Source: a virus
Virus record (IMG/VR): IMGVR_UViG_3300037010_001749
Coordinates: 21,896-85,895 of that record
Strand: one strand, 5' to 3'
DNA: 64,000 bases
The notes beneath the pieces are model-generated. The model searched no databases. It was not told where the DNA came from and was given only the letters and a program-made list of their open reading frames with translations. Both the position numbers and the translations under genes were made by a program. Shown here one piece after another: positions 19,837-45,266 of the stretch. Positions within the stretch are counted from its first letter, which is position 1. Each line of letters begins with the position of its first letter.

Positions 19837-20586
19837 CTACTCCTTAGCCCTAGAGAAAAGCCTGGGCGCCGCAAACTTGCGCGCCTTCCGCCCGTGGACT
19901 GTGATGACCACTGAGGCCCTATTGCTTCGGCCGTCGGCCGTGCCGTTGCATGCACCGCACGCGATGCACGTGAGGCGCTTGCCCGCCTCTTCGCTGGCCG
20001 GGCAGACCATCTCACGCACTCCGGCCCCAGCCTTGGGCGTGCGCACACGGAAGTAACGCAGCCCCAGAGTCTGGGCCAGCGTAGCTTCAGCATCGCTGTC
20101 GACGCTGGCCATGCAGAGTTCGGTGACACCTTGCCACTGCTCCAGGGGCAAGTCTCTGTTCTGCCACTGGTGCGTGTAGCCTGTGTGGCCTGCGGCCTTG
20201 GACACCAGGGCCTGCCAGACCCTGGCAGGCACAGCCATCGGGTCCCCATAGGAGCCCAGGCGGACCATTCGGCCCTCACCCAGCACCGAGGGGTCTTCGT
20301 GCAGAGGGTAGCCGCCGCGGCGCCACTTCTTGTAGACCACGGCAGGCCCACGGTCTACCAGCACATAGCAGGCACCGCCGCGGCTGGGGCGCCAGGCACA
20401 CTCTCCGCACACAGAGACATCTGCGCCCGAGGCTACAGCCTCAGCCGGGTGCATGTCCTGGCGCAGGATGTATGTCTGCACCATGTTGCCTGTCTTCACG
20501 TTGGCGCTCGCCTTCAGGGCAATGGCCATGATGGGCGCCGCGTCAAGCAGCGACGCCCCTTGCCAGATGACGTGGCCCGTCGTCAT
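19837..20586 (-). CDS. Conserved Cys-rich phage protein (GP88-like, possible Fe-S protein)
   Basis: N.KTG.MVQT.I, CGEC...CYV, RLGSYGDP, TGYTHQW, SVDS, CPA...C..C..C. Confidence 0.7.
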   Translation of the reverse strand: MTTGHVIWQGASLLDAAPIMAIALKASANVKTGNMVQTYILRQDMHPAEAVASGADVSVCGECAWRPSRGGACYVLVDRGPAVVYKKWRRGGYPLHEDPSVLGEGRMVRLGSYGDPMAVPARVWQALVSKAAGHTGYTHQWQNRDLPLEQWQGVTELCMASVDSDAEATLAQTLGLRYFRVRTPKAGAGVREMVCPASEEAGKRLTCIACGACNGTADGRSNRASVVITVHGRKARKFAAPRLFSRAKE

Positions 20587-21167
20587 GTGGGTTCGTCGGC
20601 GAGCCAGCTTCGCGGCACGCAGTAGCATGCAACCATACCGCCTATAGTCGGCATCTCTTCGCCTTCCAAGTAGAAACCCCCATCGAGGTCAGCCGCCCCG
20701 GGCACGTAGGGACTGCAGGCCCTGTTGGCATGACCGGCTGGCCCGGCGAACACCCACAGCAGCGGCGCACCACCCAACCAGTCAATCCGATAGTTGACGC
20801 CGTCATAGACGCCTTCGATGATCGGCTCGCTGATATCGATGTTGTCTCGCCGGCGCTCGACGTGTTCCTCGACAAAGGCATCCTTGTCCGGCTCCTGATT
20901 CTTGAACCCGAACCAGTTTTGCTGGAAGATCTCGGAGTCGAAGCCCACCTCTCGGTCAGCGCCGCTCTCAGCGGCGCTAATGCAGCACTCCTCCGTCAAG
21001 GCTTCGTATTCGCCCTCGGCCTCGGCCACCAGTTCAGTGACGGCCGCCTCGTAGCTGACGTCCTTGGCGTGCTGGCCATAGAACAGGTCATCCAGGCACC
21101 AGGGCTGTAACGAGTTGAAAGAGATCACGCCGTAGGCGAGACCAGTGGTGGGGTTGTAGTCGGGCAT
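20583..21167 (-). CDS. Acidic hypothetical protein
   Basis: TAAGGAG RBS; CSPYVPGAADLD motif. Confidence 0.75.
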   Translation of the reverse strand: MPDYNPTTGLAYGVISFNSLQPWCLDDLFYGQHAKDVSYEAAVTELVAEAEGEYEALTEECCISAAESGADREVGFDSEIFQQNWFGFKNQEPDKDAFVEEHVERRRDNIDISEPIIEGVYDGVNYRIDWLGGAPLLWVFAGPAGHANRACSPYVPGAADLDGGFYLEGEEMPTIGGMVACYCVPRSWLADEPT

Positions 21168-21314
21168 CGTTGCTCCTTAGGGCTAGGTACGCTCACACCT
21201 CAAGCCACCACGCGGCCCGAGGCTGAGAAGAAATATGTCAAGCAAAACTTGTCATCTTCGAGCCGCGCAACCGCCGGATGTGCAGCCACTCGCCGTCTGT
21301 GAGACTGCGTAGCT

Positions 21315-21521
21315 TCACAGCGTCACCCGCTCAGCCAGCGCCTGGCTGATCTCACCATTCCGGGACAAGCTGTCGACGTAGTCCGAGAAGGCGCAGCGTG
21401 TGTCGGTCACGTGCATGGTGCCGTTGCCGCTGTAGTCGGGGGTCTTTTTGCGCTCCGCGTCGGGGTGCGCTTCCCAAAAGGCAGCGCGAACCTCACGCTG
21501 CGCGGTGTAGGTAGGCTTCAC
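21315..21521 (-). CDS. Conserved small phage protein
   Basis: VR.AFW...DTRCAF.DYVDSL.R.G.IS..LA..VTL. Confidence 0.7.
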   Translation of the reverse strand: MKPTYTAQREVRAAFWEAHPDAERKKTPDYSGNGTMHVTDTRCAFSDYVDSLSRNGEISQALAERVTL

Positions 21522-21603
21522 AGCGGGTAGCCCACCCGCTTCACGACCTTGCAGTTCACCACCTCGACCGTGTCTCCGACACGGATGACACCCTCCCGCC
21601 GGC

Positions 21604-22115: not shown

Positions 22116-22305
22116 GACAGCGTCTCCGACTTAGCCTCTTCACCCAGGGCGCGCAACGTGGTGGCCAGCAAGGTACTGGCACGGATCGGGCTCATGCCCG
22201 AGGCGATGAGCAGGCGCTTCGCGTCCTGCATGGCCTGCAGCCCCTGTAGATTGGTCTGGCGCACGGCACTGCTGAAGGTGCGGATGATTTCGTGTTCGAT
22301 ATCGT

Positions 22306-22542
22306 TCAAACGTCTTCCTTAGGGTTGGGGAAAGGCTTGCGCTCCAAGGGGAACGAGGCTAGTCGGATCTGGCCCATGCCCTTGCGAATGTAAATATGCT
22401 GGCGGTGATCAAAACGAAAGGCCAGCATGTCACTGGCCAGGTTGGCCTTCAGGATCGCCAAGTCTTCGGTGTGATAGAACGCCCATCGGGCGGCCTTGAT
22501 GGCGCGGCCAAGGTCGCGCCAGGTCTAGCGCAGCGGGGTCAC
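22306..22542 (-). pseudogene. Small ORF with an in-frame TAG at codon 6
   Basis: Coupled GTG start, TAG at 22525-22527, frame open afterwards to TGA at 22306. Confidence 0.45.
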
Positions 22543-28482: not shown

Positions 28483-29394
28483 TCATGCCGCCTCCTTAGC
28501 CTTGAGGAGGCCCAGTTGGTGGGCGATACCTTCGATCTCATCGAAGGCGATGTCATGGCAGCCGACCACGATATTGCCGTTGGTGCAGATCTTCGTCAAC
28601 TCGTAGTGACCCAAGGTCATGCCTACCTCGTAGTCCTTCTTGCCCTTCATGACGCGCTGGATGACCGGCCAGAGCTTCTTCGCGTCTTCGACGGGGATGC
28701 TGGCGTGGCGGCTGGTCTGGATCATGAACGACGGCAAGTCCAGCCGCAGCATCGTCGGAAGATCCCGGCTGAGCGCTGGGCTCCCACTCCGCCGCCAGGC
28801 TGTAATGGCGACGGCCTGCAGCCTCCGAAAGGCCTTGGCCTGCGACACTGCGCGGCGTTTCTCCGAGACGGCTTTCTTGGCCAGGTGCTCGCGGTGCTGC
28901 TCCGGGCTCCACGTCGCCGCATCGATCGGCTTGATACGGGCCTTGTGCTTCAGCAGCTTCGCAAACTGGTTGAAGTCGGCGGTGATCTGCGCCGCTTGGC
29001 TGAGGTAGACAGGCCGATTGCCGTCGGCCTTGGCGCGTAGGGCCTTGGCCAGCAGGTTGTCGACGAGGGCCTGAGTGCCTTCCGTGTCCGGCGCGTCGTG
29101 CTCCGGGTTCAGCACGGACACCTGCTTCAGGTGCCTGGTGGCGTGTCGTGCCTCCCAGACGTGCCTGTTTGTCGTGGAAGAATTCTTCTCCAGGTTGATG
29201 GCCACCCAGCCGCCGGGTAAGTGGCGACCGATGCAGTAGTGCTTGCCGTAGCTGTAGAAGTAGTCGCCTTCGACGAAGGCCTGGATGACGCGGCCGCCGT
29301 TCATGCCGGGACGCTCGGGCATCCGAGCTTCAGCCTGCCGTTTGTGGGCCCAGATGTGGGCCAGTTCTTCCGAGTGGTTGTACACCGTCTTCAT
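28483..29394 (-). CDS. Conserved phage early protein, 303 aa
   Basis: AH.WA...YSYG.HY.I...S.TT..H; GCH.I...EI. Confidence 0.8.
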   Translation of the reverse strand: MKTVYNHSEELAHIWAHKRQAEARMPERPGMNGGRVIQAFVEGDYFYSYGKHYCIGRHLPGGWVAINLEKNSSTTNRHVWEARHATRHLKQVSVLNPEHDAPDTEGTQALVDNLLAKALRAKADGNRPVYLSQAAQITADFNQFAKLLKHKARIKPIDAATWSPEQHREHLAKKAVSEKRRAVSQAKAFRRLQAVAITAWRRSGSPALSRDLPTMLRLDLPSFMIQTSRHASIPVEDAKKLWPVIQRVMKGKKDYEVGMTLGHYELTKICTNGNIVVGCHDIAFDEIEGIAHQLGLLKAKEAA

Positions 29395-29645: not shown

Positions 29646-29709
29646 GGCGGCTCCTTAGGGCTAGAGAACCCGGCCGATGCGGTCCTGGCCTTTGATCTTG
29701 ATGGCCATG

Positions 29710-29985: not shown

Positions 29986-32900
29986 CGCACACCTGACAGG
30001 TTCTCGTACTCTTCGACGCCCATGATGACGCACTCGATGACAGCCAGGCCGTCTCGAAGCCACATCGGGCACTCGCGCTTGGCCTGCTGCCCGTCTTCCT
30101 CCGTCAGGTGGAACTGGTTCGCACCCTTCTCGAAGCCCAGCGGCTTGCCGGCGCGATCCTTCTGCATGGCCACCCACACTTGAGTCGGCGCCGTCACTTC
30201 AGCACACCTGCAATCTTGGCGTACTTCTCGAGCAGTTCCGGGAACGCATCTTCGATGCGCCGGATGCTGTCGTCGTCAGCCACGAGGTAGGCCTCGGCCA
30301 ACTTGGCGGCGAACCCTCCGCCGTAGGCTCGCATCACCCGGATGATGTCCAGGCGGTCGTTCAGTTCGTAGTGCATGACGCCTCCTTAGCGCTGAGGAGC
30401 CAAGGTATAGAAGCGGACCGCCGCATCGCGGCGCCAGGCATCCAGCAGTTCACCGTCAGCGCCGGGATACTTCTGGACCTTGTCGCCCACCCAGGCCCGC
30501 TGCAGGTTCTCCTTCAGACGTTCCGCCTGAACTGGGTCAGCAAAGCGCGACACCGTGAGCAACTCGTTGGGCGGGTCGCACACGACGGTGTACAGCGTCG
30601 GGTGGTAGAGCGGCGGGATACCCGCCTTCTGCTGATGCCACGTGCTCAAGCTCGATCCTCCTTAGCGTTGAGGGCGTTGGCGATAACCTGGGCCTGCCCC
30701 ATGCCGGAGCACTCGCAGACGACCTGGTTTCCGTACCAGTCGTCGCCTGCCTCTCGTGCGTACGGCGGCGGGTCGATGTTCGTGTCCACCACTGAGGCAT
30801 CAAAGCAGCAGGCATGGCCGAGGATGCTGCGCTCCACAGCCTTGTACCGCGGCGTCATGTCACCTCCCGCAAGGTGGCCTTGTCGCGCAAGTCAGCACGC
30901 CACTGCTCGGCCCAGCTGGTCAAGTCTGGGATGTGCTCACGGACAAGCTCGCACACCATGTCCGCGAAGTAGCCTGCGGCGCAGCGCTGCCAGAACTCAT
31001 CGGCGTTGCCGTAGCAACACGCGCCCAGGCTTTCCTCGCCCAGCATCTCGCCACGGTGCCATAGGCTCACGTCGGCGTTGAACCAGGCGAAGTCCTCGAT
31101 CTCGCGGTACTGCTGCGGCGTCCACCCGCACTCCTTCACGAAATGCCGGTGCATGCTGACCGACTCTTCCGGAGGAGCATCGAAGCAAATCATGTAGTCG
31201 GTGCCAGGGATCACAAGCACTGGTTTCATTTCTGCCTTTCAGCGAGGCCAGAGGCTGCGGCGGCTTCCGCATGCTCCAGCGAACCCAGGTAGCTGCGGCC
31301 TTCAATGGCGCGCAGTTCGGTCAGGCGGTCGCCCAACTCCTTAGCCCTGAGGAATTCGTCCCCGGCCAGCCGGCTGCCCAGCGCCTTCAGGATCAGCAGT
31401 GTGTCGAACTTGTTGAGTTCGAAGATCCAGTTGGGCTTGAGGTGCAGTTGCGGCTTGTCGATTCGTTCACCGTTCATCGGCTATCCCTCATCTTGTCCAC
31501 GTTGAAGCGCTTGATCCAGCGCTCGATGATCGTGTCGCACACGCCCAGGCCATCCAGCAGCCCATCGAGGTCTTCCGCACGCAGGCATAGGCTGACGTGC
31601 CCGTAACTCTCGTGGCTTTCGATACCCCGCTCCGGATCACCCTTGAACGCCTCGTCGAGCATGTCAATCAGCTGAGTGACGTAGTAGCCACCTGGCTGCT
31701 GATTGCGCTCTTCGGCGTCACGCAGCACAAACTCCAGCCGGTGCCCATGCCAGGTCTTGACGTTGAGCCAGCCGTCGACGTGGGTCAGCTCAGCATAGAT
31801 GTCGTCGTCGTCGCTCACAGCTTCTCCGCCACCAAGCCAGCGAGCATCGTGCGCATGGCCTGGGTGTAGCCCATCAGGTAGAGATCGCCGTTCTCCTTAG
31901 CGTTGAGTATGATGTTGTCCAGGCCCTGGAACATCGATTCGATGCGGTAGTCATCGACTAGCCGGTTGCGCCGTCGGCGGTCAGGCCGCTCGATCCCTTG
32001 ATTGTCGGTGTAGTAGTCCATGTCAGGTCTCCACGATTCGTGCGTCCCAGCCGTAGGCGATACTCTCGCCTCCCTTGGACAGCATGTTGAACATCTGCTT
32101 GATGTCATCGAGCACGTCATTTGGGTCACGCAGCATCTCGCCTTCCTCGGACGGGAGAAGCGTGACCATGATGTGCACGGGCTTCGCCCGCGGCTCGCCA
32201 TCATCGGGGCCATCGGCCCCGGCACGCTCGAAAGGCTCGTGGCTGTCGCAGCCGTCGTCGTACTCTTCAGGGAGCATCAGCTTTCCTCGGGTGCAGCGTA
32301 GAGCTGCTCAACGACAAGGTCCTGGGGCCGGGCCAGCGGCGGTTGGGTGTAACGCCAATGTTGCGACTCATCGGAGTTCTTCCAGAACCAGCGCGTGCCT
32401 GCGTAATACGTCAAGGGGCTCGCCTGAAAGGCGGCCTGCAGCATTGCTCCATAACCATCTTCTTCAACCGCCTCCATGGCGTCGAGCATCGCTCGTGTCG
32501 CCACGGTGGGCACCAGCTTCCAGTGGGTCACAGGTCCACCTCGCGCCCATCGGGCATGATCAGCGTGGTCTCGGTGCTGATACCGAGCACCGCGTCGAGG
32601 ATCTTGAGGCTGTAGCTGGGCAGGGCCGGCGCCACGAGATTTTCGAGCGTCTCGTGCAGGGTTTCCACGTGGTCGTCCTGGTTGGGGTCGAAGTCGTCGG
32701 GCACTTCGACCTCGAACGTCTCGCGCTCCCAGACGGCCTGGTCGCGTTGGATTCGGATCTTCATTCAATGCCTCCAAACAAAGCCGTCTTCGGTGAGGAA
32801 GCCGCCGCCGATGCCACGTTCGGTGTAGGCGCCTTGCAGGGCGTACTCGAGGACGTCAAGCTGGGTGAGTCTCACCGCCCGGCTCCTTCGCGTCCTGGTA

Positions 32901-34357
32901 CATCGGGCACGACGGCGTCAGGCCGTCACAGTTTTCGCGAATCAGACGCCGACGGACTTCCGCGTAGCCGTCGCTCATGGCGCAATAGCTGTCGCCGTCC
33001 TGATCTGCGTCTCGGTAGGGGCATCGCCCGCACTCGGTCACAAAGAAGCTGAAGCCCTTCACAGCAGCCTCGCTACTTCAAGGCGAAACTGGTCAATCAT
33101 CCTGGTAACGTGCCAGGTGATCGGTAGCACGTCATCGACGCGCCACCATGAGCCGGCCCTGATCTTCTTCGGCGTGAAGCCCCAGGCCTCGATGTCCTGC
33201 GCCTTCATCACGAAGGGCAGGGCCGCGTTGAGTTCGGCGGTGCTCACGTAGAGCACACCGTCGATCATTTCAGTCTTCAAAGGACCTCCTTAGGGCTGAG
33301 GATCAGGCAAAGCGCTGGGCGCTCTCTCGGTACCAGACATACTCTTCTTGGGCCCAGATCCAGTCTGGGTAGCCAAGGCACTTGACGGCTTGCCAGATTT
33401 CCTCGCAAGCCCCGGCCTGGCCTTCAGCGTAGGCCTTGACGTATTCGGCGTACACCTCCTCGGGTACGTCCATCACTGCAGTTTCGCCAACTGTTGCTTG
33501 CCCAGCGTAGTCAACCACAGCTTGCCCGCTGAGTCCACCGTGATGTACCTCAGGTCATCGAAGTAGGTGGCCCACAGCCGCGGGCCCACCGGATCGAAAT
33601 CGTCGAAGAAGATGACCTTGGTGGCACCGCCACCAGTGTTGTGCACGTACTGCAGCACCTGCTTTTGGAATGTGCTCATCCCGCCTCCTTAGCGTTAGGG
33701 AGCCGCCGGTGCTCCTGCCGGTCGTCTTTCAGCCGCTTCTCGACCCGGTCACCAGTCCCGCCGTTGACGGCGATGTGCACAAGGCCGTCGACCCAGGGCT
33801 CGCAGTAGAAGCTGACCGTGTTGGCCACCAGGATGGCGGCCAGGCGTTGGGCCGTGGCCTCATGCATCTCGAAGATGGCGACCCCATCGGGACCACCCTT
33901 GATGAGCAGGGCCACGTCAGTCCCCCGGCGTGTCGCTGCTGGGCGCGTCGTAGCTGGCGTCGGCACCACCGCCGCCGAAGTCACCACCGCCGCCGGACTC
34001 AATTCCGTCGGTGCCGCCGAAGCCCACGGTCGGACGGCCTGTGCCCTCGGGAATCTCGGGGCTGTCCTGGATCGCATCGACGATCAAGCTGCCCACAGCC
34101 ATGGCCTCGGTAGGCAGTGCGCCGACTGCCGGCGGCGCCCAGTGAAGCTCCAGCGCCTCGGGGTAGAAGGTTCTGCCATAGCATTCGGCATAGTGCGTCA
34201 CGTAAACACGGCCCGAACTGCTGGCGTTGTTCGGCGCGCTGGCGTCGTCCAGGCGCCAGACGTCACCCCACTTGTCAGTGATCCGCTGGCCGGCCACAAC
34301 AGGCTTGAACCACTTGTCCAGCAGCGTATAAGTGCCGTTGTACCCTTGCTTTTCCAT
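29982..34357 (-). other. Run of about 17 small, tightly coupled hypothetical early ORFs (e.g. 30194-30376, 30386-30649, 30646-30858, 30855-31229, 31226-31477, 31474-31818, 31815-32021, 32023-32277, 32277-32531, 32528-32764, 33059-33280, 33473-33679, 33676-33915, 33917-34357)
   Basis: Consecutive minus-strand ORFs with ATGA overlaps or TAAGGAG RBS. Confidence 0.65.
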
Positions 34358-34370
34358 GTCTGACTCTCCT

Positions 34371-34524
34371 TAGTCCTGGGGAACGTAATTCTTGAAAAAG
34401 ACCCGGCCATAGCTCTGACTCGGGACCTCATCGGGAAACGCGCTGCGGCTTCCGCAGCGATCTTGGTTGGGTAGAGCACGTCGCGCAAGTCTTGCACGCG
34501 CCAAAGATCCACGACATCAGGCAT
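34371..34524 (-). pseudogene. Probable frameshifted small ORF
   Basis: N-terminal frame (...YPTKIAAEAAAR) and the C-terminal frame ending at the RBS-motif stop (AFPDE...YVPQD*) are offset. Confidence 0.35.
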
Positions 34525-34548: not shown

Positions 34549-37500
34549 TCACTTGGTTTCCTTTGCCAGTGAGCGGGCCACACGTGCCCGCAGCTTCTCA
34601 AACTGCACCATCTCATCGGTAATCTCGTCGAGCACCTCGTCGTAATAGTTGACATCGGGGCAGGTGGCGATCTGGTTGTGCAATTCCGCGATGGCCAGGC
34701 CCAGGCCCTCGTGGACCATCTTCAGGTTCTTGCCTGTGAAGATCACGGAGCGCACCCCATGATCTGCTTGCGCACCCAGACATCCTGCTCGCGCCGGTCG
34801 ATCAGTTCCTTCAGCGCGTCAGCCAGATCCTGGCTGTCCACGTGCTCGAAGTCTCCAGTGGGTAAACGCGCTCCGCGGTTGGCTGACAGGCCCCCCTCGT
34901 GGCGCATGCGGCGCAGCTTGCTGTGCATCGTGTGCAACTCCTCAAGGCTAAGGTTCAGTACGGTCCCCAGTCGTATGAGTAGGGCACGTCGAACCAGGCC
35001 TGCTGCGGCGACATGCCTGCTTCGAAGCGGCTCTTCCATGCCTGGCGTTCTTCCAGCGGGCCGGACTCCGCGTCATAGTGCGCCAGCTTCTTCTCGGCGG
35101 CGATGCGCTTGAGTTCGGCAAACCACACAGCCTTGTCCCAAGGCAGGCCCACCAGGTGCTTGTGGCGGTTCACCACGTTGAAGTAGATGCCGTCCTCGTC
35201 ACTGGCGAAGTAGCCGACGATGCGCTTGCCTTTGTGCTCGGTCACGGCCGGCACGCTGAAGTAGGTGTCAGCGTAGCCGCTGGCGTAGCAGGTGAGTCTC
35301 AGCTGCGTGCCGGCGATGGGGCAGTTGCGGACCTTGGCGTAGGGGCCGAGGCAGTCGAACGAGCCGCCGGGTCGGTGACCCACCGCACCGTTGGGCCAGG
35401 TGAACGTGTCGGTCGGATGTGCGTAGAACTTCTGTCCTGCCATGACCTCTCCCTAGCGGCTAAGGAACCGCGGCTTCTTCTTGCCGATGAAGTTGGCCAG
35501 GCGTTCCACCTGGTCAGTGACAGGGACAGGAACCGGCTTGGGCATCGGCGCCGGCGGCTTGGCCAGCAATGCTGCCTGCACTGCGTCCGCGCCCTCGCCC
35601 TGCTTGGGCAAGGCCGGGCGGATAGCGCTGCCAATACGGGTCGGGCTCCAGTCCTTCTGCAGCGTCACAAGGCTGCCAGTGCGCTCCAGCATCAGTCGTA
35701 CTGCGCGCCGCTGGGGCGCAGCCGGCCGTGCTCAATCAGAACCTGGATGATGAGGTTCATCTCGGCCCGGCTCGGGATGCCGAACTGTTCGTTGCGCCAG
35801 CCCTGCGCACCGTAGACGAAACGACGGACCGCGCTGCGGTGCAGCAGCTTGTCCAGCCAGTTCAGTTCATACTCGACCACGACTTCTTCGTAGCCGGAAG
35901 GACCCTTCGACCAGAAGGTAACGGAGCGGACTTGCATCAGGAGTTGTCCATTTCTTTGAAAGCCGCAGCAAGAAAGTCGACGGCGTCGGCCACGGCCTGG
36001 TCGTAGGTGTCGAGAACCGGACCGACCACGCACTCTTTGGCAAGTTGCCACCAGTGGCCGCCGTTGAGATCATCCTGGCGGAACTCGAAGCCTGCAGCCT
36101 GCAGGTGATGCACCGGAATCATGGCCACGGTGCGGACGATGGGTAGGTCTTGCATGCCTTCTCCTTAGTCCTGAGGAATCACGCAGTTGGCCACGTACAG
36201 GTCCAGCTGCGGGTTGAGGTAGTGCGCCCCTTGTGCCTCGGTCATGGCGATCTGCATGAGCAGGCCGCCGATGGAGTCTTCGATATAGGTCGACAGGAAC
36301 CACGGTGTGCGCAGGCGCTCGCATTGCGCCTCGGCCTTGGCCACCCCGTCCTTGATAGCCGGGTCTCCGAAAGTGACGTGGCCTTCGGCGACCTCACGCA
36401 GCAGGCCCTGATAGTGCCACTGCCTGGCGTAATCCCGCTGTTTGGGCGACAGCTGGTCGTAGGTCAGCAGAGCCTGGTCCAGGCCGGCGTTGAAGGCCTT
36501 GCGAGAGAACGTCGCAGGCGTCACCAACAATTCCCGGTCCCGTGTTGAAGGCTCGAGGCTTTCGTACCACGCGTCAAAGTCCATCACTTTTCCTTCCAGT
36601 TGGCGCAGCAGCGCTGCGAGATCCAGTAGTCCGCTGAGGTGTCGCAGATCAGGTACTCCTGCAGCGCCTTTCGGGCTTCAGCCCGAGTCTCGAACTCGTC
36701 GACCGTTTCGGTGTGGCCCTGGCCACGTCGGTTGATGTAGGTCATTCCCTAGCCCTGGGGAATTTCGGCAACCGAGGCAAACCAGCACTCGGTCAATGAC
36801 TCGTCGTCGTTGAAGGTCTCGAACAGGTACTCGCAAGCGGCTTCGCCGATGCCCTGCGCCGTGAACGCGTTCTCCGCCTGGACGGCGATCTTGACTGTCA
36901 CGACAAACTCTCCCGGTTTCGTAGCCATGCTTTGGTTCTCCAATCGTTGGGCAAGCGCTGCACGCGCTGCAGCCGCACCCGCGGCTCAACGCTGGCGCAG
37001 AACGCTTCGTACTGCTTGAACAAGGTCTCAGCCTGCTTGGCGTAGGCGTGCGGGGGCTTGGTGCCCCAGTAGAACTCCAGCGAAGCCTCGCTGTGCCCTT
37101 CGCTCGGGTGCCAGCAAGCGATGTAGCCGCGGTTCACCTCGTCGTAGGGCAGGAACAGTTCCAGCTCGCGCCCCTCGGGCAGACTGCGCTCCTTCAGCGT
37201 CTTGGGCGGGATGCACCGGATCAGGACCGGCACCGTGATGAGCCAGTCGGTGATGGCGTAGCGCGGTCTCACTTCAGCCGCTCCGCACGGCGCGCCATCT
37301 TCGCCGCCAGCTTCTCGCGCTTGGCCGCTTCGACCTCGCGGTTGTGCTTGGCGATTTCCATCTGGAGGAGAGCCTGCTGCGCCCTGTTGGCGGTGCTGTT
37401 GCTGCGGTTCGGCCGACCAGTCTTTGACGCCTTCATGCCGCTGCTCGCGGCAGCTGCCATGAGCATAGCGCTGAGGCTAAGGCTGAATTTCTTGAGTCCG

Positions 37501-39108
37501 TTGAACATGGAGTTCTCCTTAGGGTTGGGGAGCCGCGTAGTGCCGCGCAGCTTCCAGTTCGACAAGTGCTGTGATGGTGCGGTGCTTCTCGGTTTCTGCC
37601 ACATCAATCTCGAAGAGCGTGTCTCCCGCTTTGCCGCACTGCACGACGTAGGCGTCACGCCAGGCCTCGGAGTAGAACCACTGCGTCTTTGGGTTTGTCG
37701 GGCTGTTGAGCGCGACGACGTAGATCTTCATGGTCACTCCTTAGGGTTAGGCAAAAGGTAGGTTCAGCATGGCGCCAGCGCCGTGCAGGATGCTGATGAT
37801 CTTCTCGCCGGCGCTTCGCGTCGGCAAGGGGCCGGATATATGCTGCTGGCCGTCCACGTCGAAGACGTAGAAGGGCGGATATCGCCCTTCGGTCTCGTTC
37901 GTAGACTGCACGCCGCTGCCATCTGGTGTGTCTTCGCCATCAATGGCAAGCCACCTGCGTGTCAGGTCGGGAGTGGTCATCACGCCCCCACCAGGTGGGC
38001 ACGCTTTTCCAGCTCGAACAGGTGGCGATCACGGCCAGGCTCCAGCACCACGCCGCGGGCACGCTCCCGGGCCCGGTCGGCTTCCAGCGTCGTGTCGCCA
38101 GTCTTCGGGCCGCTGGCCAGCGCCGCGGCCGCAGCCACACGCTCAGCCGCCTTGGCCTTGCGCTCCATGCGCCTGGTGTAGTCCAAGCCACGAATGATCT
38201 CGTCGCCCCAGGCTTCAGCATCAGCTGCGCCCAGGAACTCGACATCGAAGCCGCCCATACGGGCTGTGGCAAGTGTGTAGCGGCTGGCCCGGTCGATGAT
38301 TTCCTGGCCGTGCCGGAACTGGTCCAGGTACTGGGCTGGGCAGACGAAGATCTGCTGCACAGGGCTGGCGCCGAGGGCAATGGCCGTGATGTCGTTCAGG
38401 GTGGCGCCTTCGATGATGGCGTCGACCGTGTCAGGGTGCCGCAGCACGACCGTGAACAGGTTCGGGGGCAGGTAACCGGTTTGCTGGTTCATCATGAACT
38501 CCTTAGTCCCTAGGGACCGCTTGGTTGACGGCTGGGGCACTCCCCAGCCGGGTTGTTTCACCGGCCGTCGGCCGGTGTCTTCTCGCCGCGGATGTCCACA
38601 AGGCCGAGAGCCTCGCCGTACGTCCAATGGGCTCTGACTTCGTGTACCAGGAAGCCCTGGTCTCGCGCCTGGTAGATCAGGTCCACCATCTTGCGCTGGA
38701 TGTCTTTCAGCGCGAGCGGCAGAGGGGTGTAACTGGTCATGGGTGTTTCCGCGGCTGGGGCAGGTCGCCTTCTTTGGGCAAAGCATTCCAGGCCTTGCGC
38801 TCGGCGTAGCCGCCGAGAAGGTAGCCAACAGCGAAGAGGGCGAGACCGAGAGCCACGAAGATGCCGGCCGACAGAGCGATGAACATGTCCATGTGGGCTC
38901 CTTAGGGTTGGGGAAGGTCGAGCTTGAAGACGGCGTGCTGCGTGGCAAGACACGCAAGGTGCCCGGCGTCCACGCTGGCCCGGCAAGCGTGGTACGGCTG
39001 CGCCCGTTCGTCGAAGAACAGGCACTGGCAACAGTGCGGATTGCCTGGGTGTTCCTCGGGGTGTGCAGGAACAACGACAAGTCGAACAGGAAAGCCCAGG
39101 ACGTTCAT
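34549..39108 (-). other. Run of small hypothetical early ORFs (e.g. 34549-34755, 34955-35443, 35453-35692, 35692-35937, 35937-36155, 36165-36587, 36898-37272, 37269-37508, 37519-37737, 37747-37983, 37980-38495, 38558-38740, 38902-39108)
   Basis: Consecutive minus-strand ORFs, many preceded by the TAAGGAG motif. Confidence 0.65.
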
Positions 39109-39335: not shown

Positions 39336-39782
39336 TCAGTCACCGTAGGCCTCCTTAGCATTGAGGAGCCAGAGGATCATCGGCTCGGGGTCCGGCGGAT
39401 TGCCGTTGGTTCCCTTGGAGTAGGGGCTGTGGTGCTCGCCGCTCATGAGGCGGTCACAAGCCGTGTTGCCGCGCACCTCGTGCAGCGGGCACTCCTCGCA
39501 CTCCGGAGTGCCGGACCAATCCGGGTCGTCCACTTCACGCTCCTCCGCGTCGGTGTCGTAATGCTTCGCGCACAGCGCGCAGCTTTTGGCATCGATTCTG
39601 AGGGCAGATTCGCGTCCCTCCCCGGTAACAACGCCATCTGTGAAGCTGACGCCGTGCTTGGCCAGATTCTCGGGCCGCAGGCCGATCCACTTCTGCAGGC
39701 TGTGCGCCGTGGGCTTGGCCCTGGCCTCAGGCGAGTCGGCACAGCAGGGGTAGAACTCCTTTGACCAGGTTTTATAGCTCAT
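39336..39782 (-). CDS. Cys-rich hypothetical protein
   Basis: SL.KW.GL, CALC, CEECPL. Confidence 0.75.
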   Translation of the reverse strand: MSYKTWSKEFYPCCADSPEARAKPTAHSLQKWIGLRPENLAKHGVSFTDGVVTGEGRESALRIDAKSCALCAKHYDTDAEEREVDDPDWSGTPECEECPLHEVRGNTACDRLMSGEHHSPYSKGTNGNPPDPEPMILWLLNAKEAYGD

Positions 39783-39794
39783 TTCAAGCTCTCC

Positions 39795-40349
39795 TTAGCG
39801 TTGAGGACGGGCGTTCTTGCCCTTGGTGGTGATAGCGCCCTGGGCGTTGAGATAGCCCAGGGCGATAAGGGAGCGCTTCGCAAGCGCGAAGCGCTCGGTC
39901 GAGATGCCGCGGCGCCGCAGTTCGTCGGCCCGTGCGAAGCTCTTCAGCCCACACGTCACGTCAAGCACCTGCAGTTCGTCGGCCGACAGAGTCGGGCCCG
40001 GCGCCGGCAGCAAAGGCGCCGCGTTGTCCGGATGAACGTAGACCGTCGGGTCCATGTACTTGCCGCAGAAGCAGCACGACTCAACGATGGCGAAGCCTGG
40101 CTTCAGGTGGATGTTCTTGTCCTTGCGACAGCTGAACCAGGGCGGGCTCCACGCATCGGTGACGCTGGCCATGCGGCCCGTGGCCAGTTCCAATGCGTCG
40201 TACTGGTAGCGAGTGCCACCGTCCCACACGCCAGCGTATGCCGGGATGTGCACTTCCGTGGTGGCGTGCAACTTGACAGACTTTCGTCCTGTGATGCCGC
40301 GCAAGTGCAGCGGCAGTTCCTTGGTGTCAACGTGAATGGCTTGGCTCAT
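39795..40349 (-). CDS. Conserved phage early protein
   Basis: WDGGTR..Y; GAIT.KG.NA; AGGAG RBS. Confidence 0.75.
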   Translation of the reverse strand: MSQAIHVDTKELPLHLRGITGRKSVKLHATTEVHIPAYAGVWDGGTRYQYDALELATGRMASVTDAWSPPWFSCRKDKNIHLKPGFAIVESCCFCGKYMDPTVYVHPDNAAPLLPAPGPTLSADELQVLDVTCGLKSFARADELRRRGISTERFALAKRSLIALGYLNAQGAITTKGKNARPQR

Positions 40350-40434: not shown

Positions 40435-40830
40435 TTACTCCGCAAGGTTCGTGGCGGGCATCTCCTTAGTACTAGGGACCGGAGCAGGCAGCACTCGCCG
40501 CGCCAGGTCATCGATGAGTTGGGCCACGACCGTCGGCACGCTGTCAAGGGTCTGGTCGTCGTCCAGGCGCCTGAGCCTGCGGTCGCGCTTGATGGCGATG
40601 GTGTGCTTGGCTACCGTTGTCGTGCCGTTCGCGTACACCTTAACGGTCATGGGGCGGCCGCTCAGGCTCTGTACGATCCAGGAAGGGTGCTTCAGGGCTC
40701 GGCTGTTGGCCCGGCCAGCCAGAAGCCTTGGGTCTGCTCCGGCCTTGGGGCGGTCAAGCACCAGGACGACAGCTCCGGCGTCATTCCCGGAAATAACAAG
40801 GGCTTTGCAGCCCGGTTCGATCGGTTTCAT
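40435..40830 (-). CDS. Hypothetical protein
   Basis: TAAGGAG RBS. Confidence 0.7.
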   Translation of the reverse strand: MKPIEPGCKALVISGNDAGAVVLVLDRPKAGADPRLLAGRANSRALKHPSWIVQSLSGRPMTVKVYANGTTTVAKHTIAIKRDRRLRRLDDDQTLDSVPTVVAQLIDDLARRVLPAPVPSTKEMPATNLAE

Positions 40831-40845
40831 GCTGGCTCCTTAGGG

Positions 40846-41229
40846 TTAGGGAGTCAGGCTGCGCCGCTTGGCGCAGCCACGTGCGTACTCGGTGCCGGCC
40901 GCGTCCGTGGCCAGCGTGATGAGACCGTGGGCCATCTGGTTGTGGTCGAACCAGAGGAATAGCCAGGCACGCTGGCCGTACACCACGCAGGCCTCACCAT
41001 CGGCCGGCGTCTCGCTCCGGCACAGCTCCGTGTAGAGGACAGGGCGGCAGCCGTGCGGCATCTCGCCCAGGTCGTGAGCCGTCAGCGGGTCGCGGCAAGC
41101 CACAAGGTCGGGGGCCTGGGCCATGCCTGCGCAGGCCGCTACTGCGCGCTCGGCCTCAGCGTGGAAGTAGACGCCAGACCAGAAGCAGTCGGCCATGGTG
41201 GCATGGGCATGGCCAAAGAAGTTGTGCAT
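40846..41229 (-). CDS. Hypothetical protein
   Basis: TAAGGAG RBS. Confidence 0.65.
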   Translation of the reverse strand: MHNFFGHAHATMADCFWSGVYFHAEAERAVAACAGMAQAPDLVACRDPLTAHDLGEMPHGCRPVLYTELCRSETPADGEACVVYGQRAWLFLWFDHNQMAHGLITLATDAAGTEYARGCAKRRSLTP

Positions 41230-41238
41230 GGCGGCTCC

Positions 41239-41700
41239 TTAGGCGTTAAGGAGAAAGGAGAGGACAGCGACCATCTCCCGGGCCTGGTCGGGCATCACGT
41301 AGTCGATGCCCGACTCACCGGGCCTGACGTCGGCCATGAGGTCGATCGACACCCGCTCGAAGGCAAGCAGGCGCAGATGGCTGCGTATGGCCGACTCGTT
41401 CCGGGCGGTCACCCACATAGGTGGCGCGCTCGGGCTGTCGTCGATGGTCAGCTGATAGACCTTGGGGCTCCGCTGGGCCCGGTCCTCGGGCCAGCCGAAA
41501 ACCTTGGCCGCCTCGTGGGCCAGCCAGCATTCGAAATCGCTGCAGCTGCCGTCCAGGGTCTTGCGGCCCTCCAGGTAGGCCCAGACAACCTCGAGGGTGC
41601 GGGCAGCGAAGTCGCGGGGGTCGGGGCAGAAGTTGGGCTCGCGGTCCATGCGCTCTGCGCAGGCACCGCGGACGAACATGCGGAGATGGTTGAGTTCCAT
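41239..41700 (-). CDS. Hypothetical protein
   Basis: TAAGGAG RBS. Confidence 0.7.
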   Translation of the reverse strand: MELNHLRMFVRGACAERMDREPNFCPDPRDFAARTLEVVWAYLEGRKTLDGSCSDFECWLAHEAAKVFGWPEDRAQRSPKVYQLTIDDSPSAPPMWVTARNESAIRSHLRLLAFERVSIDLMADVRPGESGIDYVMPDQAREMVAVLSFLLNA

Positions 41701-41728
41701 GTAGATGCTCCTTAGGGTTGGGGAAGGG

Positions 41729-41965: not shown

Positions 41966-42049
41966 GGTTCTCTCCTTAGGGGCTAGGGAAGGGGCTGGTT
42001 CGGTGGGTCTACGTGTTGCTGGTCGTAGGAGTCTCCTTAGGGTTGGGGA

Positions 42050-42432: not shown

Positions 42433-42464
42433 AGCCCCGGGACACTTGCGAGTGTCCCGGGGTT
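42433..42464. terminator. Strong GC hairpin (terminator or processing site)
   Basis: CCCCGGGACACT-TGCG-AGTGTCCCGGGG. Confidence 0.5.
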
Positions 42465-43585
42465 CCTTCTGTCTTGCACCGTTTTACGCGTTATCCAAGA
42501 CTCCACCGGGCGGCCAGACCCGGCTTCAAGACATAGCCCGCGAGTGAACCCTGTGCAGGCATGCATGCCTGCTCCCTAGGGGTAGGGAACACTGGCCAGC
42601 CCACAAAGTGGGCTGGGCGCTGTTCCTTACGCTCCGTACTGCAGAACCCGGAGCGTGTCGGCGTCATACCTGACTCCGGGCTCGCAGTTCACGCCGGTCT
42701 CGTCCATGTGGGTGAAGGCGGCTTCGCGGTTTTGCCCGTCCAGCTCATGCCAAGCCGCCGCGCTATCTCGCGGTGCCGCGGTTTGAATGGTAGGCCTCAG
42801 CCAGCCCTGGGCCTGGTGATAGCGCCTCATACTTGCTCCGCGCAGTCAAGGCACAGAGCCGCAAGGCAGGCGCAGATCACCGCGCCACCAAGCGCTGCCG
42901 CAGGGTGCAAGCCGTGCCCGATGTCCACGTAATCGGTCGCGAGACTTGCGAAAATGCCGATACAGGCAAGCATGCCCGTGAAAAACGCCAGAAAAACTGT
43001 GCGCATGATCAGACCTTTGCGGGTTGCAGGTTACGAATGGGCGCGGGCTTGATGGCCGCGAAGCGCTGGGCAAGGGCCTGGTTTTCCTTAGCGCTGAGGA
43101 AGCGGGCTTCCGCTTCGCGCTGCAGTTGCTCAGCCAGGCTCATGTGGGCCAGTCGGTCACTTTTCACTTTGAGCCCTTCCATGTGCGGATGGTCGAAGAT
43201 GTGTAGGCCGTGCCGATGACGTGGACCTTGGCAGGCGGCCACCTGCTAGGCTGCTGTGCCACGGGCGCCGGTCCCTTGGCCTTTGCCGTCGAATGCCACC
43301 ATGGCCGGACCGGGTCTGGTTCCCCCATGCACGTGCCCAGCGCCCACACAACCTGTAGCGTGCCCCAAATGCGAACTTCAGCGCCGGGAGTCAGCTTTGC
43401 CCTTTCGATAGCCCTGTGCATGCTTTTGGTGCGCCGGCCATAGGCACACAGAACCCCGTCGCTGGGGCAGAAAGTTTGGTAGAACATCCGTTCGTCCTTT
43501 TCGCAGGCACCATGCCTACGGGCTTCCCTAGTGCACTGGGGAAGCCCGTAGATACGGGGCCCCGGGAGCGTCCCGGGGCAGGCCC

Positions 43586-44236
43586 TCAAGCGGCAAGGGC
43601 CAGACCGTCGGCGCGTTCGGCCATCGGTGTGACCTTTGTAGCTGGGCGGATGCTTGCCAGCGCTTCGACTTGCGCTGGGGTCAAGGCGTCAGCCTTGTGC
43701 ATGGCGCACAGCTGGGCGATCACTGCATCTACGTTCAAGCCGCCGGACTCGGTGCCGGACTTGGCGCCGGACTCGGTGCCGGACTTGGCGCCGGACTCGG
43801 TGCCGGACTTGGCGCCGGACTCTGATGCTTTTGTCAACCGCTCGGCTTCGGCTTTCAGCGCCGATTGGTTTGACGTAGCAACGCTGGCAGTGATGCGGCC
43901 AAGGTCGAAGGGTTCCAATGTCACGACTCGTGCAGGCCCTTTGCCGCTAGCCACGTAGTAGTTCACGACTCCACTGCGGGCTCTGGCGAACTTCCGTAGG
44001 GTGAGAATGTAGACGTACAGCGTCTTTACCGGGCCGGACAATGACTTGTCCAACGTGGCCCACCCCGTAGCCGCAGGAAGCTCGTTTCGTTCGCAGACGA
44101 GCTGGCGGATCTCCTCGGCCAGTACTTCCATGGTAACGAAAGATTGTAGTGCTGCTTCTTGTAGCAGGGCAAACGCGGTGCCTTTGCCTTGAGCTGCAGC
44201 GTAAACGGCGATAGCTTTTTCGGAGAATTGGCGCAT
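43586..44236 (-). CDS. First leftward gene; hypothetical protein with ESGAKSGT repeats
   Basis: TAAGGA RBS, 216 aa. Confidence 0.75.
   Translation of the reverse strand: MRQFSEKAIAVYAAAQGKGTAFALLQEAALQSFVTMEVLAEEIRQLVCERNELPAATGWATLDKSLSGPVKTLYVYILTLRKFARARSGVVNYYVASGKGPARVVTLEPFDLGRITASVATSNQSALKAEAERLTKASESGAKSGTESGAKSGTESGAKSGTESGGLNVDAVIAQLCAMHKADALTPAQVEALASIRPATKVTPMAERADGLALAA
43741..43822. repeat. 24-bp tandem repeat, about 3.4 copies, in frame
   Basis: CGCCGGACTCGGTGCCGGACTTGG. Confidence 0.95.
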
Positions 44237-44774
44237 GGTATCGATCCTTAAGACTAGGGTAAATGCGGCCCGATTATTCGGGCCGGTAATCCGAAGGATT
44301 ACCCTAATGGGCGGCCATTAGGGAAACCCTCGTGAGGGTTTCGGTTTCACAAGCCGCGGGTTAGGCCCTAAACCTTACCGCGGCTAGAAACCATGAGCGC
44401 TAAGACAATGCGCATGCCTCAAAAAGTTAGCCGGGTTCTCAATTTTGACCCGTGGCTAACTTCGCTGCTATCAAAACCCGTTACAGGGTGCCTGTCTGCA
44501 CTATGCATATACATCCGCGCCTTTCGGCTGCTAATCGGGGTCATTCTTTCGCTTTTCGAATGGTTTGCACGGCGGCTATGTTCGGGGTTTTCTTTCGCAT
44601 CCTTTCCCTCGTTTGTTTCTCTTGGCACAAGGTGGCCTCACGTCCTATCTCACCGCCTAGGTGGGCGCCGGGCCCGCTATCCCGGCCGCGCCTCACGGCG
44701 CGGATTTCTGGCCTAACCCTGCCAGTCTGGTGCGCAAACCCCTAGGGGCTCACCCTAGAGATAGCGCGCTTGAG

Positions 44775-44787
44775 TTGTTAAAGAGCG
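44775..44787 (-). promoter_or_regulatory. boxA antitermination element preceded by small hairpins
   Basis: CGCTCTTTAACAA on the minus strand at the head of the leftward arm. Confidence 0.75.
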
Positions 44788-45266
44788 CTGCCGGAGCCTA
44801 CCGCCGGACTGCGCCGCGGGCTTACCGCCCGGGGCTTGCATCTATCGTTTCCTCTAGTGCATGGCTAGTAATGTATCCCTAAGCGCTAAGGAACCAATCA
44901 GGACAAACCCTAATAGGGTTTACCCCACATATAACTTCGGTGCGCGACGCATGCACGCGTTAAATAGATTCGGAATTAGCGAAACGCAATAGGGGTTTAC
45001 CCTAATGTTCTGCATTCGCTGTTTTTTCAGACCCCCATAGGGGTTAGGTACCAAAAGGCAAAAAAGGCCATAAACGGCCGTCTGATGCTTTCCAGCGGCA
45101 AAGGGTTAACCCCTAGTCTAGCTGGCCTGGTTTTTGACGGCATGTTTGTTGCCTGTTACAATTACACGCCCATTAGTAACACACTGATACGCACGCATCG
45201 GCTATTCGGCCCATGCCAGCAAGCACGCACATCCTTAGCCCTAAGGGCCATGCGGGTATCACTGGG

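Follow-up and report, generated by a model that had tools for sequence, protein, structure and literature searches.

A short inverted repeat with the consensus TCCYYAR-N2(3,4)-YTRRGGA, here called the dyad, recurs 41 times in an 85,895-bp record of an uncultured virus (IMG/VR record IMGVR_UViG_3300037010_001749; G+C content, 62%) and stands at the head of 25 small genes of a single region. The motif is real, strongly non-random, and specific to gene class. The window analyzed here covers 64,000 nt (bases 21896 to 85895 of the record), and all coordinates refer to it. The dyad is a 16-bp (rarely 17- to 18-bp) imperfect, degenerate palindrome, and its right arm, read in the sense of the mRNA, resembles a Shine-Dalgarno sequence. 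It is interpreted here, tentatively, as a duplex-DNA site for a dimeric regulator of the leftward arm of the genome, one half-site of which was co-opted as a stop codon and ribosome-binding site (RBS); this interpretation may well be correct although it falls short of probable.

Copy number, anatomy, and distribution of the dyad

Dyads were called when at most one position departed from TCCYYAR-N-YTRRGGA. The 41 copies in the whole record comprise 35 with a 2-nt spacer (N2), 5 with a 3-nt spacer (N3), and 1 with a 4-nt spacer (N4), against chance expectations of 0.30 (N2) and 0.37 (N3), that is, about 0.7 in total, obtained from 30 first-order Markov resamples. Spacers of 0, 1, and 5 to 9 nt yielded no dyads anywhere in the record. 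The sequence CTAAGGAG is present in 25 copies in the window, which are also the only 25 in the record, all on the minus strand; dinucleotide shuffles gave 0.82 copies on average and 4 at most. Similarly, the full N2 dyad CCYYARNNYTRRGG occurs 26 times (0.29 expected) and its N3 form occurs 5 times (0.23 expected). An earlier note on this DNA, made from the letters alone, had listed 25 main positions, all of which hold: 24 are exact copies of CTAAGGAG on the minus strand, and the one at 22315 reads CTAAGGAA. The seven positions that it called variants (15369, 35449, 42572, 43085, 44245, 44877, and 45232) are likewise all dyads that carry at most a single mismatch, and the copies at 5584, 16813, 17096, 18774, 34939, 36746, 43525, and 46240 had been missed.

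The note had made its case depend, in advance, on the inverted half-site being enriched beyond what Shine-Dalgarno sequences and codon bias provide. Such enrichment was found: a left arm matching TCCYYAR with at most one mismatch lies 2 or 3 nt upstream of 28 of the 29 minus-strand occurrences of CTAAGGA, compared with a chance level of about 1% (0.011 per site). The sole CTAAGGA that lacks a left arm, at 2037 within the DNA polymerase gene, serves as an internal chance control. The left arm is thus conserved beyond the Shine-Dalgarno sequence and codon bias.

The anatomy is described here for the 25 N2 copies that contain CTAAGGA, in mRNA sense, with positions numbered L0 to L7 in the left arm and R1 to R8 in the right. 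The left arm begins with a pyrimidine at L0 (18/25), followed by T at L1 (22/25), C at L2 (22/25), C at L3 (23/25), C or T at L4 (14 and 11 copies) and at L5 (16 and 9 copies), A at L6 (25/25), and A or G at L7 (13 and 12 copies). A spacer, mostly CC or CG, leads to CTAAGGA, which is invariant from R1 to R7, and then to G in 21 of the 25 copies. Information content, which amounts to approximately 1 to 2.3 bits per position in the left arm, drops to background directly beyond L0 and R8. No transversion was found at L4 or L5, either in these 25 copies or in a wider alignment of 30, and L7 is a purine in 25/25 and 29/30 copies, respectively; only the copy at 42573 has a C there. Symmetry extends to the invariant positions (T1, C2, C3, and A6 against T, G, G, and A), and both arms match a single half-site that is degenerate between pyrimidines and between purines (Y/R). 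Covariation between the arms was not detected within the genome, with C at L4 in 4 of the 6 sites that have G at R4 and in about 18 of the 31 that have A. One exact 18-nt version occurs at four junctions with unrelated flanks, and a fifth copy (22316) matches it in 17 of 18 nt, ending in GGAA.

The heptamer UAAGGAG is the complement of the last seven bases of the 16S rRNA tail of the Escherichia coli type and therefore, for a host with such a tail, the right arm is a maximal Shine-Dalgarno sequence. The C that precedes UAAGGAG and the entire left arm are not explicable by pairing with 16S rRNA. Whichever reading of the motif holds, the right arm almost certainly works as an RBS.

To place the dyads on the gene map, coordinates were taken as predicted by our own codon-usage gene caller, and products were annotated with Pfam (141 predicted proteins) and PHROGs (102 window proteins). 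By its predicted gene content, the genome is that of a tailed phage with two divergent arms, between which lies a non-coding region (44237-46157). The minus-strand arm runs leftwards from 44236. It includes about 59 small genes without known function, at 28.4 to 44.3 kb and 19.6 to 22.4 kb, which are termed the early region because they adjoin the divergent non-coding region, upstream of the replication genes, and so are presumably expressed early. Downstream, the replication genes encode a SNF2 helicase, a primase, an exonuclease, MazG, a dGTP_diPhyd_N protein, PolA, and SbcCD-like proteins. Among 56 early and control-region proteins, 45 matched no PHROG family at E≤1e-5, and the other eleven all matched families without an assigned function.

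A start codon follows 26 of the 41 dyads, with GGAG 5 to 8 nt ahead of it, and the right arm of these copies is almost always CTAAGGAG. The start codon lies 6 to 10 nt beyond GGA in 23 of 25 genes, and the codons used are ATG (20 genes), TTG (4 genes), and GTG (1 gene). The distribution over gene classes is sharply uneven: dyads head 25/59 genes of the early region but none of the 40 late genes (plus strand, virion and packaging), none of the 34 replication genes, and none of the 14 genes of a cassette array at 22.4 to 28.4 kb, which contains zero dyads, as had been noted before. Ordinary GGAG, GAGG, or AGGA sites precede 23 of the 40 late genes and are common in the non-early classes. Within the early region, a dyad accompanies 20 of the 25 starts that lie at least 2 nt past the upstream stop but only 4 of the 33 that overlap the upstream gene or directly adjoin it. 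Early cistrons that are translated independently are, as a rule, headed by a dyad.

The relation of the motif to the upstream gene varies among the 26 start-linked junctions. The upstream frame reads through the motif, ending in ..(A/P)KE plus 0 to 4 residues, at 6 junctions; it stops at a TAA or TAG in the right arm at 10 junctions, at a TAR in the left arm at 3, and before the dyad at 3; and the remaining 4 have no upstream open reading frame (ORF). The suggestion that many upstream proteins end in NAKE, AKE, or PKE is accordingly right for the 6 read-through junctions, whereas at 13 the stop lies inside the motif. Whatever the frame in which the upstream gene meets the motif, the left arm is present, and it also occurs in non-coding DNA. 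Dyads do not coincide with sigma-70 promoters: none was detected at a dyad, and 18.7 kb contained 3 promoter-like sites, compared with 3.4 expected.

The other 15 dyads, 11 intragenic and 4 non-coding (42034, 43525, 44876, and 45232, the last two in the divergent control region), have no usable start codon, and they are not noise, because chance would give only about 0.7 dyads in the entire record. Together with the conserved left arm, they support the earlier view that the motif is more than an RBS and that some copies are intragenic or non-coding. The four intragenic copies within early genes are all read in the same frame. The other seven intragenic copies lie outside the early arm, six in the window (5584, 15369, 16813, 17096, 18774, and 46240) and one in an SbcC-like gene beyond it. 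The right arms of these seven vary: CTGAGGA (twice), ATAAGGA, TTAAGGA, CTAGGCA, CTAAGGA, and GCCCTAA/TTAGGGC (46240). From this variation, the basic unit seems to be the degenerate palindrome, with CTAAGGAG as a version adapted to serve as stop and RBS.

Readings of the dyad

Pairing in RNA was assessed by folding 26- to 27-nt segments around 35 dyads and by counting pairs in 30 aligned N2 sites. The mean folding energy is -5.0 kcal/mol in mRNA sense and -6.5 kcal/mol on the plus strand, compared with -5.4 kcal/mol (standard deviation, 3.5) in 83 start regions that lack the motif; strong folds in mRNA sense occur at a few sites (-12.9 at 28493 and -12.5 at 42573). Standard pairs fill 72.9% of the cells on the mRNA strand and 87.1% on the plus strand. 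On the mRNA strand, 26% of core pairs are mismatched, and the three variable pairs L4-R4, L5-R3, and L7-R1 are unpaired in 15, 18, and 14 of the 30 sites, whereas on the plus strand the same pairs form, through G.U, in 30, 29, and 27. Conversely, the outer pair L0-R8 favors the mRNA strand and is unpaired on the plus strand in 19/30 sites. The excess of plus-strand pairing is largely automatic, because a transition in the free arm from U or G gives a G.U pair on the opposite strand; the relative L011 (see below) and the sites at 35450 and 44876 instead have the wobble on the mRNA strand. Covariation did not exceed that in shuffled alignments on either strand (mRNA strand, 0.097 versus 0.090 in shuffles). 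Pairing in the mRNA is not selected, and the conserved feature is the purine/pyrimidine pattern. Neither stability nor covariation supports a stem of the kind expected of a translational operator hairpin. The earlier suggestion of a translational operator agrees with the RBS position of the motif, but the hairpin is no stabler than the controls, and about half of the copies are mismatched at three of the seven core pairs.

The dyad is retained in relatives. A TerL query returned only three short contigs as close relatives, the same three in viral_contigs and in metagenome_contigs. Two of these, L009 and L010, whose TerL is 91% identical, keep five and two dyads, respectively, including counterparts of those at 45232, 46240, 43525, and 44245. 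In the third, L011, whose TerL is 70% identical, the 4.3 kb upstream of the terminase gene contain three dyads, and predicted minus-strand starts follow two of them. All three have 3-nt spacers, reading TCCTCAG-ATT-CTGAGGAG, TCCCTAG-GTT-TTGAGGAG, and ACCTCAG-ATT-TTGAGGAT; thus, the dyad relation and the link to the RBS persist while the letters change. Farther afield, no recurring dyad was found in 12 distant TerL-profile relatives (26 to 56% identity), queries with PolA and with a 303-amino-acid (aa) early protein retrieved no further relatives, and a megablast search with 8 kb of the early arm gave no match among isolated phages. A 16-mer scan of viral_contigs returned five contigs with one copy each, which are taken as chance matches.

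A duplex-DNA site is consistent with the use of one Y/R half-site in both arms, the sharp peak at N2, the 15 of 41 copies without a start, the absence of selection on mRNA pairing, the class-specific use, and the retention of the dyad in L009, L010, and L011 while letters change. Y/R degeneracy in a palindrome of fixed spacing is typical of sites for dimeric DNA-binding proteins. Pope et al. reasoned likewise for the inverted repeats of ESAS elements (PMC3203893). Under this reading, a dimeric and probably phage-encoded regulator would recognize the palindrome on duplex DNA across the leftward arm, that is, the early and then the replication genes, and, by analogy with dispersed stoperators, could act as an operator or roadblock that shuts off early transcription. 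The half-site YTRRGGA can be written as CTAAGGA(G), which would supply a Shine-Dalgarno sequence of 7 bases that includes a TAA stop. The packed arm has hardly any free space other than gene junctions, and so the phage is proposed to have placed the site there, where the promoter-distal arm would both stop the upstream gene and bind the ribosome for the downstream gene. Because of this double duty, the RBS arm would be frozen while the other arm drifts within Y/R limits.

Several observations weigh against an operator on DNA. The tight tie to non-overlapping starts is the pattern expected of a translation signal, and the four start-less copies in early genes all keep CTAAGGA(G/A) in mRNA sense, a bias also compatible with a reader acting on RNA or with remnants of earlier junctions. 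Spacer length varies among N2, N3, and N4, even between orthologous sites (N2 at 44245, N3 in its L009 counterpart), which suits a rigid dimer poorly. Of the 30 dyads with a C/TTAAGGA right arm, 28 have C at R1, whereas its mirror position L7 is A or G about equally, an asymmetry that is explained by neither symmetry nor rRNA pairing. Furthermore, the mirror-perfect TT at L4L5 occurs in 0 of the 25 N2 CTAAGGA copies, although approximately 4 would be expected if the positions were independent; the left arm is therefore not simply a copy of the right. The same TT is present in 3 of the 5 N3 copies. Its absence from the N2 copies, taken with this, hints that strong hairpins able to mask the Shine-Dalgarno sequence are selected against. 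Finally, although the anatomy best fits the earlier proposal of sites for a dimeric phage protein, a binding protein did not emerge: the 56 early and control-region proteins yielded no Pfam DNA-binding domain at E≤0.05, apart from sub-threshold helix-turn-helix (HTH) matches in 45844-46152, and the Pfam and PHROG scans found no repressor or integrase.

The two binders that had been put forward fare poorly. The HTH candidate (given as 45844-46155) has only sub-threshold HTH matches and adjoins the terminase genes, and the first early gene (43586-44236) has no recognizable family in Pfam or PHROGs and no informative look-alike. The former is a 103-aa plus-strand ORF that has two weak HTH signatures and lies shortly before the terminase genes. 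It is kept in L009, L010, and L011 and has no relative in the PDB; it may be a packaging gene or a late regulator.

The competing readings do not exclude one another. Next to the DNA operator, an element acting in the mRNA at gene starts is a possible but clearly less likely account. It would be either a weak hairpin that masks the Shine-Dalgarno sequence and is opened by the upstream ribosome (coupling or attenuation) or the target of a translation regulator or nuclease, functionally akin to T4 RegA or RegB. The position of GGAG 5 to 8 nt ahead of the start in 26/41 copies and the contrast between 20/25 non-overlapping and 4/33 overlapping early starts are what such an element predicts, and the arm on the RBS side does not vary and keeps the mRNA sense throughout, also in the four copies that lie within early genes. 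The upstream ribosome would enter or cross the motif at 19 of the 26 junctions (stop inside the motif at 13 and beyond it at 6), a change among N2, N3, and N4 is harmless to a hairpin loop, and YUCC...GGAG can always pair, even if strong folds are few (28493 and 42573). However, the mean folding energy equals that of motif-free start regions, the paired fraction is the lower of the two strands with the three variable pairs mismatched in about half of the sites, a full-length hairpin cannot close over a 2-nt spacer, and L6 is always A although in such a hairpin it would be a loop position. The 11 intragenic copies, 7 of them outside the early arm with variable right arms, fit poorly as well, and for a protein that binds single-stranded RNA an inverted repeat would present no symmetric target.

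A broader version of the operator reading, which is considered unlikely, makes the dyad the operator of a lineage-specific, genome-wide switch, by which one small phage protein, or an antisense RNA with an arm resembling the anti-Shine-Dalgarno sequence, would recognize palindrome, stop codon, and RBS in a single site and could shut down transcription and translation of the approximately 25 early ORFan cistrons together. If that were true, start-linked elements of this type would be a general cross-phylum regulatory device rather than a curiosity of actinobacteriophages, and the motif could serve as a sequence tag for early host-takeover and anti-defense genes in uncultured phages.

It is improbable that the motif persists as a linker, maintained by in-register swaps of small early genes through short-homology recombination, with the stop and RBS travelling with the cassette. 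Its location at junctions of ORFan genes would be in keeping with this, as would the exact 18-nt version at four junctions with unrelated flanks and the cassette array, which has a different start context and lies exactly between the dyad junctions 22316 and 28493; the PeSL cassettes of T4-type phages offer a precedent (PMC2839356). One indel, relative to L009, was examined. The contig L009 has an extra 63-codon ORF plus dyad where the window passes from a conserved 14-nt stretch straight to the next gene, and the two L009 dyads concerned resemble each other over flanks of about 28 nt. On the right, the break coincides with the start codon that immediately follows the dyad; on the left, it lies 14 nt before the start codon of the extra ORF, about 35 nt from the other dyad. 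This one indel is compatible with units made of a gene plus its junction, not with dyad-to-dyad exchange. In addition, homologous exchange would have little to work with in 16 to 18 bp, the copies within replication genes do not lie at junctions, and contigs from four public DNA runs, joints with short sides (21 to 35 letters) being left out of account, were near-identical copies (0 to 1 differences over long pieces) with no informative rearrangements.

There is equally little to recommend a factor-free cis module, namely, an extra-strong RBS with built-in stops whose left arm is a passive by-product of common descent of the junctions or of codon effects. Although UAAGGAG is a maximal Shine-Dalgarno sequence, the upstream stop falls within the motif at 13/26 junctions, and exact subtypes recur, the left arm is well conserved with sharp edges in every frame relation and in non-coding DNA. 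Moreover, the late genes, which are highly expressed, have no dyad, 15 copies have no start, and L011 keeps the dyad with different letters.

Least likely among these is a hairpin on the plus (antisense or template) strand, for example, one that stabilizes or processes an antisense RNA whose arm, resembling the anti-Shine-Dalgarno sequence, would pair with every early RBS. The better pairing and lower mean energy of the plus strand, together with a sigma-70-like plus-strand promoter 70 nt upstream of the 45232 dyad, point in this direction; on the other side stand the automatic origin of the G.U pairs, the sites where the wobble is on the mRNA strand, the frequently open L0-R8 pair, the lack of covariation above shuffles, and an energy gain over controls of only about 1 kcal/mol. 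Promoters for a phage RNA polymerase, including N4-type hairpin promoters, were rejected because no RNA polymerase family was found among the 141 Pfam-scanned or 102 PHROG-scanned proteins, and an identity as sigma-70 promoters was rejected because no dyad bears a promoter-like site.

Comparison with known phage repeats

In the broad sense in which Pope et al. 2011 used the term start-associated sequence (SAS), the motif behaves as one (PMC3203893). It forms many repeats that are far better conserved than an RBS (25 copies of CTAAGGAG versus 0.82), occupies the RBS position before mostly ATG starts, is confined at starts to the non-structural arm and to one orientation (0/40 plus-strand genes; all CTAAGGAG on the minus strand), and has conserved positions, the C at R1 and the left arm, beyond those that pair with a 16S rRNA tail of the extent assumed above. 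With the SAS and ESAS of cluster K phages, its closest known analogue, as described in the same source, it further shares a Shine-Dalgarno core near starts, association with a subset of genes from unrelated families, an occasional upstream stop inside the motif, and a linked inverted repeat whose departures from symmetry disfavor RNA pairing.

It is not, however, a cluster K SAS in the strict sense. The cluster K consensus is a 13-bp asymmetric, non-palindromic sequence, and the ESAS consists of separate, imperfect 17-bp inverted repeats with spacers of 4 to 13 bp directly upstream of the SAS (PMC3203893), whereas here the letters are unrelated and the Shine-Dalgarno sequence itself is one arm of a dyad with 7-nt arms and a spacer of mostly 2 to 3 nt (2 to 4 nt overall). 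More than one-third of the copies here are start-less, and no integrase or repressor was found. Other phages provide partial parallels, in each case repeats ahead of the starts of leftward or early genes of unknown function. Microbacterium cluster EF phages have SAS/ESAS-like motifs that are not described as dyads; the cluster EG phage Hyperion has ten repeats made of two short inverted motifs 2 bp apart, which is similar, but they lie 14 to 21 bp before the start, off the RBS (PMC7302621). Citrobacter phage Mordin, with a Gram-negative host, has a 26-bp SAS-like repeat, again not described as a dyad (PMC4611695), so that such repeats are also found outside phages of Gram-positive hosts. Copy numbers in these phages are 8 to 12, compared with 41 here. 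In a literature search of limited scope, no report turned up of a dyad in which one arm is the Shine-Dalgarno sequence.

Stoperators are dozens of short dispersed sites, mostly at gene junctions, at which one phage protein blocks transcription. The likeness consists in dozens of copies of one short site across a transcription arm, mostly at junctions. Stoperators differ in being asymmetric, orientation dependent, and outside the RBS, and they belong to temperate phages with a known repressor, none of which is shown here. Integron attC sites are imperfect palindromes of approximately 60 to 140 bp that follow each cassette and work with an integron integrase; here the sites are 16 to 18 bp, and no integrase family was found among the 141 Pfam-scanned proteins. 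Stoperators of cluster A mycobacteriophages are mentioned in PMC3203893. In T4-type phages, PeSLs are stem-loop repeats found on either side of ORFan early genes. Each closes with the Shine-Dalgarno sequence and start codon of the gene that follows, and a role as recombination linkers has been proposed for them; they are about 100 bp long with a strong sigma-70 promoter and a terminator (PMC2839356), unlike the 16- to 18-bp sites here, which have neither a sigma-70-type early promoter nor a terminator stem-loop.

SASs have been catalogued since 2011, and a 2025 analysis of 188 cluster K genomes still calls for experimental verification of their role (PMC12699233). The present phage is a cleaner case, with 41 copies of a simple symmetric design and built-in contrasts within one genome, between copies at RBSs and copies elsewhere and between motif-bearing and motif-free gene classes. 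It also shows that the SAS-type phenomenon is not confined to phages of actinobacteria. The motif would define a co-regulated set of about 25 early genes of unknown function, beside a putative island with an Acb2/Tad1-like anti-defense gene, and could guide the search for host-takeover genes.

Coordinates and neighboring features

Table 1. Dyads in the window. Spacers other than N2 are indicated.
Position	Strand	Setting	Remark
Start-linked
19841..19856	-	RBS of gene 19613-19834	Upstream protein ends ..RAKE*
21174..21189	-	RBS of gene 20583-21167
22316..22331	-	RBS of gene 22112-22309, TTG start	CTAAGGAA; left edge of cassette array
28493..28508	-	RBS, then ATG at 28486 opening only a 24-codon ORF	Right edge of cassette array
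29652..29667	-	RBS of gene 29391-29645	Upstream stop TAG in left arm
30383..30398	-	RBS of gene 30194-30376	Upstream stop TAA in right arm
30659..30674	-	RBS of gene 30386-30649, TTG start
33287..33302	-	RBS of gene 33059-33280, TTG start
33686..33701	-	RBS of gene 33473-33679
34367..34382	-	RBS of gene 33917-34357
34939..34954	-	RBS of gene 34743-34928	RBS arm is the variable one (TTGAGGAG); distal arm CCTTAG
35450..35466	-	RBS of gene 34955-35443	N3; CTAGGGAG
36162..36177	-	RBS of gene 35937-36155
36746..36761	-	Abuts ATG of ORF 36584-36745	CTAGGGA
37516..37531	-	RBS of gene 37269-37508
37738..37753	-	RBS of gene 37519-37731
38500..38516	-	RBS of gene 37980-38495	N3
38899..38914	-	RBS of gene 38737-38892
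39352..39367	-	RBS of gene 39188-39343, GTG start
39792..39807	-	RBS of gene 39336-39782
40837..40852	-	RBS of gene 40435-40830
41236..41252	-	RBS of gene 40846-41229	N3
41709..41724	-	RBS of gene 41239-41700
41973..41989	-	RBS of ORF 41729-41965, TTG start	N3
42573..42588	-	6 nt ahead of ATG of ORF 42324-42566	CTAGGGAG
44245..44260	-	RBS of first early gene 43586-44236	TTAAGGAT; L009 counterpart N3
Start-less
5584..5599		In gene 4767-5792	Right arm CTGAGGA on minus strand
15369..15384		In gene 15142-15600
16813..16828		In gene 16539-16904
17096..17111		In gene 16894-17382
18774..18789		In weak ORF 18737-18913	Exact fit; right arm TTAAGGA
31338..31353		In gene 31226-31477	Read FLRAKEL
31894..31909		In gene 31815-32021	Read ILNAKEN
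40463..40478		3' end of gene 40435-40830	Read VPSTKEM
42034..42049		Non-coding, 61 nt upstream of 41973 dyad
43085..43100		In gene 43009-43182	Read FLSAKEN
43525..43542		Directly after first early gene	N4; center of longer hairpin; L009 counterpart at 491
44876..44892		Non-coding control region	N3
45232..45247		Control region, beside 24-nt tandem array	Near-perfect palindrome; kept in L009 and L010
46240..46255		In first plus-strand gene 46158-46613	Kept in L009 and L010

The plus-strand arm begins at 46158 and includes the large terminase gene (46606-48297), a gene for a portal-like protein (48755-50266), and an S49 protease gene. The portal assignment comes from tblastn comparison with isolated phages at no more than 32% identity, and the nearest isolates are phages of proteobacteria. 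The start of the record continues this arm with genes for a tail tube protein, a tape-measure protein, a GpJ-like protein, a lysozyme, and a fiber protein; the largest proteins are the tape-measure protein, PolA, the fiber protein, and the primase. No known RNA families or tRNAs were found in the window. At 4346 to 6378, genes for a dGTP_diPhyd_N (MazZ-like) protein, a 341-aa protein, and a MazG-like protein lie beside PolA, an arrangement that recalls phages with modified purines. A link to Z genomes (2-aminoadenine) was considered and set aside: for the 341-aa neighbor of the MazZ-like gene, neither Pfam, PHROGs, nor the PDB gave a match, and so PurZ was not demonstrated.

The cassette block (22400-28400) consists of 14 genes with a conserved start context of their own, which differs from the dyad; for example, the 30 nt upstream of gene 23781-24125 are identical to the 30 nt upstream of gene 26570-26911. 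Its predicted products include a protein with an Acb2/Tad1 hairpin domain (27793-28071), a DUF551 protein, and others that match PHROG families of unknown function. By its gene content and position, the block looks like an inserted anti-defense island, bounded by the dyads at 22316 and 28493.

Other repeats and signals cluster around the start of the minus-strand arm. Within the first early gene, a perfect 24-nt tandem repeat of 3.4 copies (43741-43822) encodes a repeated linker, rich in Ser, Gly, Thr, Glu, and Lys, between two domains. Farther along the arm, a 14-bp, G+C-rich perfect hairpin (42433-42464) lies between ORF 42324-42566 and an AT-rich non-coding stretch (42060-42330), and the latter contains a perfect minus-strand TTGACA at approximately 42151 to 42156; a second early promoter region may be located around this stretch, to judge from these elements. 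The control region at 44300 to 45120 is dense in CCCTA and TAGGG, with 16 in the 44- to 46-kb bin compared with 0 to 3 per pentamer in 2-kb bins outside 34 to 46 kb. Variously spaced palindromes arise from these elements, whose core is similar to the dyad arm in its CCCTAR form.

At 45066 to 45079, the minus strand has a hairpin that resembles a terminator and includes a T-run, and the plus-strand sigma-70-like promoter mentioned above lies at 45134 to 45162 (TTGACG-17-TACAAT with an upstream TG; 10/12 matches). A short non-coding transcript across the 45232 palindrome, from either strand, is conceivable given these signals. Abutting that dyad, the region from 45267 to 45695 contains approximately 17 tandem copies of a 24-nt unit with shorter, 13-nt inserts and a higher-order period of 85 to 109. 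This array is non-coding, is located between the two arms, and has a shorter counterpart region in L009; it could represent origin iterons or a packaging site.

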